From Candidatus Pacearchaeota archaeon (GTDB taxonomy: Archaea; Nanobdellota; Nanobdellia; UBA10117; JAFCGA01), in the NCBI GenBank assembly GCA_017608345.1, contig JAFCGA010000001.1, positions 33,766-97,765 of the forward strand: DNA of 64,000 bases, read 5' to 3'. The notes beneath the pieces were generated by a model that was given only the letters and a program-made list of their open reading frames with translations, searched no databases and had not been told where the DNA came from. Position numbers and translations under genes: made by a program. Shown here one piece after another: positions 2,735-57,770 of the stretch (positions are counted from its first letter, which is position 1; each line of letters begins with the position of its first letter).

Positions 2735-3373
2735 ATGCAAGCTAAAAAAGGCGAGTTCATAGAAATAGACTATATCGCGAAGATTAAATCTACTGGAAAG
2801 ATTTTCGATCTAACTCTCGCAGATGCGGCTAAGAAAGAAGGCGTATTTCAGCAAAGCCAGACTTATGAGCCACTAATTATCTGTGTTGGAGAGAAGCACG
2901 TAATTAAGGGCTTGGACGAAGTTATTGAAGGAAAGGAGATCGGAAAAGAATTTGAAACAGATGTTCCTCCAGAGAAAGCCTTCGGAAAGCGCAATGCTAA
3001 ATTAATCCAACTAGTTTCTCAAAGAATGTTCAAGAAGCAGAAAATGAATCCTTTTCCGGGTCTGCAGCTGAACATCGATGGAAACATCGCAACTGTTCGC
3101 AGCGTATCTGGTGGAAGAGTTATTATAGATTTTAACAACCCCCTCGCCGGGCAAGTAATACATTACTGGGTTAAGATCAACCGCACAGTTACAGATAATA
3201 AAAAGAAATTGCAAGCGCTCGCGTACAGCTTACTCGCGGAAAGGAGCGCAAGAGTCGAAATTAAAGACAAGACTGCAACTGTTACTCTAAAAAATAAGGA
3301 TAAAGACCTAAGAAAGAATTTCTCAGAGACTGCTAAGAAGCTAGTTCCTGGAATTGAGATCAAAATAATCTAA
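2735..3373 (+). CDS. FKBP-type peptidyl-prolyl cis-trans isomerase (archaeal long type with IF insert)
   Basis: GEFIEIDYIAKIKSTGKIFDLT, VIKGLDEVIEGKEIGKE, PPEKAFGKR and IIDFNNPLAGQVIHYWVKI match archaeal FKBP/SlyD-like PPIases. Confidence 0.8.
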   Translation: MQAKKGEFIEIDYIAKIKSTGKIFDLTLADAAKKEGVFQQSQTYEPLIICVGEKHVIKGLDEVIEGKEIGKEFETDVPPEKAFGKRNAKLIQLVSQRMFKKQKMNPFPGLQLNIDGNIATVRSVSGGRVIIDFNNPLAGQVIHYWVKINRTVTDNKKKLQALAYSLLAERSARVEIKDKTATVTLKNKDKDLRKNFSETAKKLVPGIEIKII

Positions 3374-3403
3374 TTATTTGGTCCGAGTATAAGTTTTTTT
3401 GAT

Positions 3404-3567
3404 GATCACTTATTTGTATTTACTCCGTTGTGTTATTTCTGAAGCGGAGCCGAACTTGTTCGGACCAGAAGCGTTAGCTTCTGGGCTTCAGATAGAATCT
3501 TCTTTGGGGCGCGGCGGGAACTTTCTTCTTAAGAAAGGGTCCGCTTTGTATAAACTATCCAGTGATC
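3404..3567. repeat. free-standing copy of the tRNA-intron-like structured element (three-way junction plus Y/R hairpin), bounded by the inverted 7-mers GATCACT/AGTGATC
   Basis: 3438-3492 folds as TCTGAAGC[CCGAAC-TTG-TTCGG][CCAGAAGC-GTTA-GCTTCTGG]GCTTCAGA. The reverse complement of 3495-3544 (GCGGACCCTTTCTTAAGAAGAAAGTTCCCGCCGCGCCCCAAAGAAGATTC) aligns with the tRNA-Pro T-loop insert, including an identical GTTCCCGCCGC. Confidence 0.6.
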
Positions 3568-3686
3568 CTTTACTGTTCTCTCAAACCGCGCAAAGTTTAT
3601 AAAAAATTGAACGTACTATTAGCTATATTAGAGAGGTAACACAGTGAGGGTTCTGTAATTCGACGAGCCCTAGCTTAATATGAAAA

Positions 3687-4880
3687 ATGGATGATCAATC
3701 TTTCGGTACGGGATTCGAAACTATAGCTGACCCTGCAGATGATATTTTTTCTTCGCCCCCACCACAACAACAGCCACAACCGCAGCCAGTTTATCAAGCA
3801 GCTCCTATGCAGGCAGCTCCAATATCTGTTCGGGAACCTGGTAATTCTGAGTTAGAAGAAATACTTGCTAAAAAGAAAGCTAGAATTAAGGTAATCGGAG
3901 CAGGTGGCGCAGGTAATCACACTATTTCGAGAATATCTGAAGTGGGCGTGGTCGGCGCTGAAACTGTAGCAATTAACACTGACGCTCAGGATCTTTTGAG
4001 TAATGCTGCAGATAAGAAAATGCTAATCGGCAAAGAACTTACCGCAGGTCTTGGTGCAGGTTCAAATCCTCAAGTCGGTAAGGAAGCTGCTAAAGAATCT
4101 GAAAATGATATTAAAAATGTATTAAAAGAAGCACACATGGTTTTCCTAACTTGTGGGCTTGGAGGCGGAACCGGAACAGGTGCGCTTCCAGTTATCGCAG
4201 CAGTAGCTAAAAAACTAGGGATTCTGACTGTTGCCGTAGTTACACTTCCATTCACAATGGAAGGTCAGCTGAGACACGAAAACGCAATGGTCGGCCTTGA
4301 GGAACTCGAAGGACTTGTCGATACGTTAATAGTTATACCAAATGATAAGCTAATTGAATTAGCTCCAGATCTTCCCCTACATACTGCATTCAAAGTTGCG
4401 GATGAGATTCTAACCAATGCAGTTAAAGGAATTGCAGAGCTGATCACAAAGCCAGGTCTTATTAATTTAGATTTTGCAGATATTAGAGCAGTTATGTCTT
4501 CTGGCGGAATTGCAATGATTGGTGTCGGAGAGAGCGATACTGAGAATCGTGCAATTGAGTGCGTTGAGAAAGCTATTTCTAACCCGTTGCTGGATATTGA
4601 TATTTCTGGAGCAAATGGCGCGTTGATTAATGTTGCTGGCGGTCCGTCTATGACTTTAGAGGAAGCTCGACAAGTAGTAGAGACTGTGACAGGTAAGCTA
4701 GACGATTCAGCTAAAATTATCTGGGGAGCTCAGGTGCAGCCGGACTTGCAGAATACTATCCGAGTCATGCTAGTAATTGTGGGTGTTAAATCACCGCAAA
4801 TCTTCGGACCTAAGCGGACGTTCTCTCAAAAGAGAAAAACAGAACTAGCTGACGATTTAGGGATTAAATTCGTTGACTGA
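3687..4880 (+). CDS. ftsZ: cell division GTPase FtsZ with a Q/P-rich N-terminal extension
   Basis: [10 protein letters not shown] and the tubulin signature [13 protein letters not shown]. The C-terminal domain is typical of FtsZ. Confidence 0.95.
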
Positions 4881-4900
4881 CCAACCCTATTTCTTTGCCA

Positions 4901-5062
4901 TTTTCTTTCTTTTGCAAAACCAGAGCGGAATGAAATTCCGCTTGGCCAACCGGAACTAGTTCCGGTCTGGAGAAAGAATTAGGCGTCCAAAGAAAGAAAA
5001 GCATATTTCTCCGCGACTGCGTCGCGTCAATAATAATCGCTCACTCATCAGTTCGCTCTAGC
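4901..5062. repeat. free-standing intron-like structured element between convergent genes
   Basis: Y-tract 4901-4914 (TTTTCTTTCTTTTG) pairs with R-tract 4988-5001 (CAAAGAAAGAAAAG) around the twin hairpin 4920-4970. That hairpin is about 47/50 identical to the reverse complement of 57276-57325, which lies inside the tRNA-Ala(GGC) D-loop insert. 5036-5062 (CGCTCACTCATCAGTTCGCTC) matches the sense strand of the 26903-26925 element. Confidence 0.65.
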
Positions 5063-5095
5063 GAATCGGGGCGATTCGCGCTTAGAGTGGTTGAG

Positions 5096-54846: not shown

Positions 54847-55069
54847 GGGGCTATGGTGTAGCTAGAGCTTAAGTATTGCTTTAGTTCCTACAATGGCTAG
54901 CATCGCAGGTTTGGGACCTGCAGACCCCAGTTCAAAGCGGAGCCTTTTCTTTTGCTAAAAGAAAAGTTCCCGCCGCTCTCCAAAAGAAAAGCGTATTGCT
55001 CGCTTCGCTCGAGAATATTGCCTTTGGCAAGTTAGGAGATGTCGGCACTTGAAAATCTGGGTAGCCCCA
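54847..55069 (+). tRNA. tRNA-Pro(UGG) with a D-loop insert (about 31 nt) and a T-loop insert (about 119 nt)
   Basis: Folds as GGGGCTA TG GTGT AGC[54863-54893]TGGCTA GCAT C GCAGG TTTGGGA CCTGC AGAC CCCAG TTCAAA[54937-55055]T CTGGG TAGCCCC A. It is 73 nt after removing the inserts. Confidence 0.75.
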
Positions 55070-55074
55070 TTGAT

Positions 55075-55213
55075 GCGCCCGTGGTCTAGTGGTACGCGCT
55101 AAAAATCCGTGCACTAAATGACTCAAGCTTGCCAAGCTTGCAACCCGAGTTCAAATTCGGACTGGTTCGAATTACTGCGAGAACTTGTTCGATCGGAAAT
55201 CTCGGCGGGCGCA
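55075..55213 (+). tRNA. tRNA-Gly(GCC) with a D-loop insert (about 24 nt) and a T-loop insert (about 44 nt)
   Basis: Folds as GCGCCCG TG GTCT AGTGGTA[55095-55118]TGAC T CAAGC TTGCCAA GCTTG CAAC CCGAG TTCAAAT[insert]CTCGG CGGGCGC A. It is 71 nt after removing the inserts and starts 5 nt after tRNA-Pro. Confidence 0.75.
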
Positions 55214-57683: not shown

Positions 57684-57769
57684 GCCGAGATAGCTCAGCT
57701 GGTAGAGCGCCAGTTTAATAGGCGAATCTCATAAGCTGGAGGTCGGGAGTTCGAGCCTCCCTCTCGGCA
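57684..57769 (+). tRNA. tRNA-Met/Ile2(CAU), elongator type, with a 13-nt insert at the 31/32 boundary
   Basis: Folds as GCCGAGA TA GCTC AGCTGGTA GAGC G CCAGT[TTAATAGGCGAAT]CTCATAA GCTGG AGGTC GGGAG TTCGAGC CTCCC TCTCGGC A. Confidence 0.8.
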
Positions 57770-57770
57770 C

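Follow-up and report, generated by a model that had tools for sequence, protein, structure and literature searches.

The spacer between an FKBP-type gene and ftsZ in a DPANN-type archaeon, whose tRNA genes carry several introns, contains a real, tightly folded and exon-less copy of the building blocks of the tRNA introns of the same host, and this copy is one of many members of a dispersed repeat family. The reading that we favor, at a probability of roughly 0.6, is of a non-coding, duplicative member of the intron family, constrained in its structure, that occupies a "safe" intergenic slot and plays no part in the ftsZ mRNA.

The window analyzed here is the whole stretch of 64,000 nt at G000:C1:33766-97765, and the genome around it (1.05 Mb, 39% G+C) is 88% complete; the genomes of its relatives are 0.3-1.2 Mb in size. 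The stop codon of the FKBP-type gene (3371-3373) and the ATG of ftsZ (3687) are both on the plus strand, and the length of 313 nt originally given for the spacer between them is correct. A single gene for the splicing endonuclease EndA (243 aa; PF01974, 98.9 bits) is present, on contig C6, and this is compatible with the single-subunit (alpha4-type) EndAs on record for DPANN lineages whose tRNA genes are heavily disrupted (PMC5829648).

Extent of the element and its relationship to the tRNA-Pro intron

The features of the spacer and of the related intron to which we refer are listed below. The "sense" orientation is that which the modules have in tRNA introns, and for the ftsZ-spacer copy this is the minus strand.

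3393-3399, plus strand: T7 run, 20 nt past the FKBP stop and upstream of the element, the likely FKBP terminator
3404-3410, no strand assigned: GATCACT, left half of a 7-nt inverted bracket, lacking at the C4 paralog
3434-3544, minus strand: repeat unit proper, the stretch common to the paralog G000:C4:47572-47690 (77-83% identity, flanks unrelated)
3438-3492, no strand assigned: three-way junction, with an 8-bp outer stem (3438-3445/3485-3492) and two hairpins
3450-3463: junction hairpin 1, CCGAAC-TT-GTTCGG, arms 3450-3455/3458-3463
3465-3484: junction hairpin 2, CCAGAAGC-GTTA-GCTTCTGG, arms 3465-3472/3477-3484
3498-3509, minus strand: third tract R3, sense CCCCAAAGAAGA, mirror image of the purine arm
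3514-3544, minus strand: module hairpin, closing helix P1 GCGG/CCGC (3541-3544 with 3514-3517)
3521-3527 and 3531-3537, minus strand: module arms in the sense orientation, purine arm AAGAAAG and pyrimidine arm CTTTCTT, respectively
3561-3567, no strand assigned: AGTGATC, right half of the 7-nt inverted bracket, not significant
3597-3606, plus strand: TTTATAAAAA, ftsZ TATA box, downstream of the element
3687-4880, plus strand: ftsZ, downstream neighbor, 397 aa, FtsZ 70-80% identical to that of the metagenome relatives
54937-54993, plus strand: homologous module at the 5' end of the tRNA-Pro(UGG) T-loop intron

The repeat unit is ~111 nt long (3434-3544), not 164 nt, and the homology between its two copies in the genome stops at ~3434 and ~3544. 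On the minus strand positions 3495-3544 read GCGGACCCTTTCTTAAGAAGAAAGTTCCCGCCGCGCCCCAAAGAAGATTC, and the T-loop intron of the tRNA-Pro(UGG) gene opens at 54937 with GCGGAGCCTTTTCTTTTGCTAAAAGAAAAGTTCCCGCCGCTCTCCAAAAGAAAAGCG; both strings were exact as quoted in the sequence-only reading, the latter at 54937-54993. This tRNA gene (54847-55069), which carries a D-loop intron and, from 54937, a ~119-nt T-loop intron, was not detected by ARAGORN, nor by Rfam at gathering score. The homology that had been claimed between the two sequences is confirmed by an exact 11-mer, GTTCCCGCCGC, common to the unit (where it flanks P1) and the tRNA-Pro intron and found within the window only at these two sites, and by 79% identity over 46 nt (E = 7e-4; BLAST within the genome). 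The likeness is confined to a hairpin-plus-tract module of ~50 nt, and the rest of the intron differs. The ftsZ-spacer module is most closely related to two T-loop introns, those of tRNA-Pro and of a C4 tRNA, with which it shares the closing helix GCGGAG...TTCCCGCCGC, and to free-standing copies in a genome (G003) from another family of the order (80% identity, E = 1.3e-5).

Every part of the unit derives from the intron "toolbox", because the hairpin GAAC(TT/AA)GTTC and the 14-mer CCGAACTTGTTCGG also recur in tRNA introns. The hairpin, which in the unit belongs to the junction, occurs 12 times in the genome against ~2 expected, mostly in tRNA introns. The 14-mer is found without any change in several genomes that belong to another family of the order, where some of its copies are in tRNA introns. 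The sites noted for these two sequences are window 3450-3463, C1:88946, C10:27468, C1:91049 and C7:19432 of G000, and the loci L009 and L012.

Two further tRNA loci in the window were also noted. Directly 3' of tRNA-Pro (55075-55200) there is a probable tRNA-Gly(GCC) with inserts in the D-loop and T-loop, which was missed by ARAGORN and has a partial Rfam match (18.9 bits, E = 0.47). The 87-nt locus 57684-57770, designated "tRNA-Stop (tta)" by ARAGORN and scored as a tRNA at 58.9 bits by Rfam, is probably an intron-bearing tRNA with a misread anticodon and not a suppressor.

A family of modules with a mirror-image purine tract

A pattern search for a pyrimidine arm (Y1), a loop of 2-4 nt, a purine arm (R2), a spacer of 3-13 nt, one to four C and a purine tract (R3) identified ~36 modules in the genome, including the ftsZ-spacer copy. 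The resemblance to the tRNA-Pro insert is real, but what had been seen as a pair is one instance of this covarying family of ~36 copies. Within the family R3 is the mirror of R2, neither a direct nor an inverted repeat of it, as in the example TTTCTTTCTCTT gc GAAGAGAAAGAA ctaggcgt CCAAGAAAGAGAAG. Mean ungapped scores of R3 against R2 were 9.9 in the mirror orientation and 6.6 in the direct orientation, while against the mirror of R2 from other copies the mean was 6.0; the mirror score exceeded the direct score in 28 of the 36 modules and tied with it in 6, and none of 2000 permutations in which R3 and R2 were reassigned matched the observed mean mirror score. The ftsZ-spacer copy has the pyrimidine arm and complementary purine arm of the family (CTTTCTT/AAGAAAG) as well as its closing helix (GCGG/CCGC), and it obeys the mirror rule with a mirror score of 7 and a direct score of 1 (AAAGAAG being the mirror of GAAGAAA).

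Y-R-R, the order on the sense strand, corresponds to the definition given to class II purine-motif intrastrand triplexes in bacterial DNA repeats (PMC4666352), and the complementary strand has the pyrimidine-motif order. Read in this manner, the mirror tract would mark, at the level of sequence, a strand able to fold back on itself as an intrastrand triple helix of the purine-motif (class II) type. Covariation suggests that such a triplex may form, in RNA or in DNA, and to our knowledge RNA purine-motif triplexes are not established structures. Approximately half of the modules are located in tRNA or rRNA introns and the other half have no RNA gene nearby, as assessed by inspection of their flanks by eye. 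In the intronic half the module begins 3-6 nt after the 5' splice site, in the D-, anticodon- or T-loops of tRNAs or in 16S rRNA, and the copies within tRNA introns are transcribed in one fixed orientation.

Selection on the fold and the possibility of a small RNA gene

The clean three-way junction that had been described at 3438-3492, with its 8-bp outer stem and two hairpins, was upheld by folding z-scores of -4.4 (minus strand) and -5.0 (plus strand), none of the shuffled sequences being as stable. The genome contains one paralog of the whole unit, at C4:47572-47690 (E = 2e-15, 77% identity), and the two copies were compared over 30 base pairs, which comprise the closing helix, the Y/R hairpin, the outer stem and the two junction hairpins. 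All 30 pairs form in both copies; 8 of the 60 paired positions differ between them, all in a compensatory manner (4 pairs), and of the 47 unpaired positions 20 differ. The closing helix P1 is GCGG/CCGC in the window copy and CTAG/CTAG in the paralog, with 3 pairs altered on both sides. The paralog also retains the three-way junction, in which a single pair has been exchanged in a compensatory way (A-U to G-C) and the loops are altered. Eight substitutions placed at random preserved all 30 pairs in only 3 of 200,000 trials. Because all 8 of the stem changes are compensatory, the fold, whether of RNA or of single-stranded DNA, has been under selection since the two copies diverged. Such selection could reflect a host function or the needs of propagation.

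A covariance model, R1, scores the two copies at 137.7 and 147.7 bits, and it has no other full-length match among the 39 genomes of the order and the 151 sampled from the class; its weaker matches are to the module alone. Assignment of a strand by means of G.U pairs was attempted and abandoned, as there is one wobble or mismatch on each closing-helix strand and the tRNA-Pro intron is alike in this respect. The unit is non-coding, because indels in the paralog disrupt the frame of the overlapping 67-aa ORF at 3399-3602.

A strong fold on both strands and purifying selection between two paralogs would also be expected of a separate gene, on one strand or the other, for a small structured RNA of ~110-130 nt that acts in trans, and a T6 run is found directly 3' of the C4 unit on the plus strand. 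A plus-strand transcript would consist of a U-rich tract followed by a hairpin, a pyrimidine-motif (U.A-U) arrangement, and arrangements of this kind protect RNA 3' ends. We nevertheless regard a small RNA gene as unlikely. The two copies have no consistent promoter: the strong TATA box at C4, which was considered as a promoter of the unit itself, suits the divergent neighboring gene, whose ATG is ~25 nt away, and apart from it there are weak AT-rich matches on the plus strand for the window copy and no match on the minus strand for the C4 copy. Furthermore, no oligo-T run follows the window copy on either strand, the unit belongs to no Rfam family, and the full unit is restricted to this genome among those of the order and class that were searched.

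Free-standing copies at gene boundaries and the possibility of a DNA-level element

Because a second free copy is present at 4899-5090, 19 nt past the ftsZ stop, ftsZ and its promoter are bracketed by two family members (3495-3544 and 4899-5090) that are inverted with respect to each other and have their module ends facing the gene. Genome-wide, the free copies occupy two kinds of position: 3-9 nt past a stop codon in the sense orientation, or beside a gene that is read in the direction away from them, with the module end adjoining its promoter or ATG. The C4 paralog sits between two divergent promoters, the gene to its left having a TATA box ~25 nt from its ATG and the gene to its right the sequence CGAAACCTTTTTTAG ~30 nt before its ATG, and the genes beside the two unit copies are unrelated. 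Free copies in G003 (L071 1500-1600, L080 100-270) end in a conserved CGAAAG-(A/C)-TTTATATAG, facing the next gene; in sequence this CGAAAG-TTTATATAG end is BRE/TATA-like, and the element may carry or target promoters.

A number of additional observations were made on individual copies. The copy downstream of ftsZ (4899-5090) is of a different subfamily from that at 3495-3544, with the twin-hairpin junction nested in the loop of the Y/R hairpin. Free copies of the "gcca" subfamily abut gene ends at C2:131670, C3:4289, C1:243212, C4:60090 and C14:45221 (all G000), their ends being 5-7 nt short of an ATG or 3-9 nt past a stop in gene calls that come from a crude ORF map, and the reverse complement of their GCCAT end yields ATGGC. 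The antisense strand of this subfamily contains a hammerhead-like CUGAUGA (e.g., 5040-5060), which was rejected as a ribozyme candidate as it has no Rfam match at gathering score and its helices misfit. In three other genomes (G019, G007 and G016) the modules of L084, L074/L082 and L086 have long direct repeats on either side (29 nt in the case of L084) or are located in tandem duplications, which in relatives measure ~80-130 nt. Lastly, L044, whose FtsZ is 72% identical, has a Y-R-R module ~200 nt past its ftsZ (~4200-4250) on the opposite strand, viz. CCCCTTTCTT gt AAGAAAGG tgtaagtta CCCCAAAGAA.

An element acting at the DNA level, in which an intrastrand triplex or H-DNA would serve as a recombination hot spot, as a barrier to replication or transcription, or as an insulator, would account for free copies at gene boundaries (after stops, or beside promoters and start codons) and for the long direct or tandem duplications that flank copies in relatives, and Y-R-R is the class II intrastrand triplex motif of dispersed bacterial repeats that cause genomic instability (PMC4666352). 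This explanation is likewise improbable in our assessment, as half of the family is transcribed within tRNA introns in one fixed orientation and as the ftsZ-spacer copy has no duplicated FKBP or ftsZ end alongside it (six-frame reading of the spacer revealed neither an FKBP C-terminus nor an FtsZ N-terminus). H-DNA requires just a mirror repeat, whereas here compensatory change has preserved a complementary arm on the same strand, a closing helix and the adjoining three-way junction, which points to a single-stranded fold.

Position of the element relative to the ftsZ promoter

A metagenome scan with FtsZ identified 38 loci, of which 14, with an FtsZ core 63-80% identical, have an FKBP gene directly upstream of ftsZ. 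In 12 of these 14 the spacer measures 19-69 nt and contains only a TATA box, (a/c)(c/t)TTATAAAAA, and none of these 12 orthologous spacers contains a Y-R-R module or a junction; in the other two, another gene or ~0.8 kb lies between FKBP and ftsZ. In a multiple alignment ~200 nt of the window (3374 to ~3570) have no counterpart in the relatives, the boundaries of the insertion being approximate because the relatives with the empty site are only 70-80% identical in FtsZ. The sequence TTATAAAAA (window 3598-3606) is invariant in the alignment with the FKBP-ftsZ spacers of six relatives and lies ~55 nt downstream of the element. Archaeal transcription starts ~25 nt past the TATA box, and the ftsZ transcript would accordingly have its 5' end at about 3625-3632, with 80 nt or more between it and the unit upstream. 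Oligo-T runs are the usual archaeal transcription termination signal, and the T7 run at 3393-3399 probably serves in this capacity for FKBP.

Because the spacers of the relatives are empty, the conserved TATA box is downstream and the T7 run is upstream, the element is, as judged from these comparisons, an insertion between the likely FKBP terminator and the ftsZ promoter and not part of the ftsZ leader. The sequence-only reading had placed it in the ftsZ leader, where it could influence expression, and this proposal does not withstand the position of the TATA box, the 12 empty spacers and the T7 run. Comparison of the same spacer in related genomes, which had been put forward as a check, shows that the spacer is conserved without the modules of the element in 12 relatives and speaks against the leader claim. 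The element lies outside the interval between the predicted start and the ATG and is not conserved in orthologous leaders, and nothing points to its being included in the ftsZ mRNA; it probably does not regulate ftsZ. A cis-acting role within the ftsZ 5' leader, as a modulator of expression, would be in keeping with the location in the 313-nt spacer and with a plus-strand orientation that is the same as that of ftsZ, as the C4 paralog likewise has the orientation of its downstream gene, but it is very improbable given that relatives express ftsZ from 19-69-nt spacers without the element, that the T7 run stands between the element and read-through from FKBP, and that the genes beside the two paralogs have nothing in common.

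Some features of the ftsZ start region also vary. The distance from the TATA box to the ftsZ ATG (3607-3686) is ~80 nt in the window compared with roughly 20-40 nt in the relatives, and the ftsZ ATG of L033 and L034 aligns with a GTG at 3645 of the window, from which the frame is now open for just four codons before a stop. In the window and in the relatives alike, FtsZ begins with a variable linker of low complexity, and its MDDQS... corresponds to the MDPYD... start of the relatives.

Identities and boundaries that were examined and rejected

The description of the element as a free-standing copy is well founded, as there are no exons and no tRNA around it. ARAGORN with the intron search on reported no tRNA in 3301-3700, either in the native sequence or with the element deleted at six alternative boundaries, and both strands of the element gave nothing above chance with Rfam; a hidden tRNA or split-tRNA host was rejected on these results. 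The element interrupts no functional RNA gene with joinable exons, and strict BHB motifs number 1 per strand compared with 3.1 in shuffles, the true tRNA-Pro locus itself scoring 0. Homology to an intron (79% over 46 nt and the shared 11-mer) and a splicing endonuclease (one EndA) are both present.

A C/D box sRNA was suggested by TGATGA at 3400 and CTGA at 3439; its scores are 17-20 bits against cut-offs of 43-47 (E 0.5-0.8), the internal D'/C' boxes are absent and the paralog has no boxes.

It is also most unlikely that the unit is the relic of a disrupted or duplicated intron-bearing tRNA gene whose exons were lost, since the junction ...CAAA|GCGGA, which is as at the tRNA-Pro 5' splice site (TTCAAA|GCGGAG), extends the match beyond the intron boundary by only 1-4 nt at a splice site that is itself ambiguous by 3 nt, no tRNA halves are detectable by ARAGORN, the unit departs from the tRNA-Pro intron in its 3' part, the three-way junction, and the unit is intact and under selection instead of decaying, although scattered tRNA fragments from mobile-element integration are documented in Caldiarchaeum (PMC3293823).

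The 7-nt sequences GATCACT and AGTGATC that had been described as bracketing the unit are both present; the meaning attached to them is lost, in view of the fact that an inverted match of at least 7 nt between 60-nt flanks arises in 29% of shuffles, that the bracket is absent at the paralog and that the unit ends at 3434 and 3544. A 7-nt direct repeat, TTTGTAT (3414-3420 and 3545-3551), is matched in 19% of shuffles. The C4 copy has neither the inverted bracket nor the flanking direct repeat, and both were rejected as the terminal inverted repeat or target duplication of a transposon. With regard to a transposase partner, the 88%-complete genome has no TnpB or reverse transcriptase domain match; it encodes two tyrosine recombinases. 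Terminal repeats, target duplication, near-identical copies and a transposase, as would characterize a MITE or transposon, are all lacking, the unit having one paralog at 77-83% identity.

Proposed explanation

The explanation that we favor for the ftsZ-spacer copy involves the following steps. The unit 3434-3544 joins two blocks of the family, the twin-hairpin three-way junction and the Y-R-R module. By insertion or copying it would have entered a short spacer, at a point where the FKBP terminator was on one side and the native promoter of ftsZ on the other. Because purifying selection acts on its helices, it has since been maintained as a folded nucleic acid. Its persistence is most likely that of a structured element, duplicative or selfish, drawn from the same stock as the tRNA and rRNA introns. 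The term mobile is suggested here by the distribution of the copies and not by a mechanism, as no transposase, significant terminal repeats or target duplication was found, and the absence of a reverse transcriptase argues weakly against spread through RNA.

A more speculative proposal, which on present indications is rather doubtful, is that the free copies are the propagating form of the family, the folded hairpin-plus-mirror-tract (triplex) end being recognized on copying, with landings in loops of tRNA or rRNA surviving as spliceable introns and landings at gene boundaries as intergenic units. If true, archaeal tRNA introns would have a concrete source that can be traced by sequence, and the family would include the first natural fold-back triplex of class II (purine-motif) to have a biological role.

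Significance and comparison with known systems

The same covarying module is present inside tRNA and rRNA introns and, without exons, between the protein genes of one genome. A recent preprint (2026) describes the route by which introns arrive as still open, and a traceable sequence family makes it possible to ask whether introns were seeded from free elements or the reverse. Natural cases in which a purine-motif fold-back triplex is called for are rare, and covariation of the mirror tract is one of them. To these the ftsZ-spacer copy adds an empty orthologous site in relatives, a paralog pair with a selected fold, and a negative result for ftsZ regulation.

Archaeal BHB tRNA introns at non-canonical positions and "intron transposition" in the Thermoproteales have been described (Fujishima et al., 2010, as reviewed in PMC4090602 and PMC4033280). 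The present element is similar to these introns in that part of it is homologous to a genuine tRNA-Pro T-loop intron, in that the host encodes EndA, and in that the same modules are present in the 16S rRNA of the host and in introns at the D-, anticodon- and T-loops of many of its tRNAs. It differs in that the ftsZ-spacer copy has no exons and yielded no splice motif in a strict BHB scan in which the tRNA-Pro locus also scored 0, and also from the transposed introns that have been described, which share their overall sequence. A covarying core of hairpin plus mirror tract and intergenic copies without exons were both absent from the literature that we searched, and in the full-text literature we found nothing that links archaeal tRNA introns with triplex motifs and no description of this family.

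Like MITEs and repeats of the REP/ERIC type, the element is short, non-coding, strongly folding, multi-copy and intergenic, near terminators and promoters. Unlike them, it has no significant terminal inverted repeats, target duplication or transposase partner, and its copies are modular and diverged (77-83% at best) instead of near-identical.

The intrastrand triplex DNA repeats of bacteria, with class II purine-motif members such as TMECO (equivalent to the BoxC/PIT elements), offer another comparison (Hoyne et al., 2000; Holder et al., 2015; PMC4666352). Both groups have the same order of a 5' pyrimidine arm, a purine arm and a 3' reverse-Hoogsteen purine tract, and both are dispersed, mostly intergenic and multi-copy. 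However, the bacterial repeats are G/C-rich and have been studied as DNA, whereas the archaeal family described here is rich in A/T, has half of its copies transcribed as part of tRNA and rRNA introns, with the orientation fixed, and occurs in combination with further hairpin modules of an RNA-like kind.
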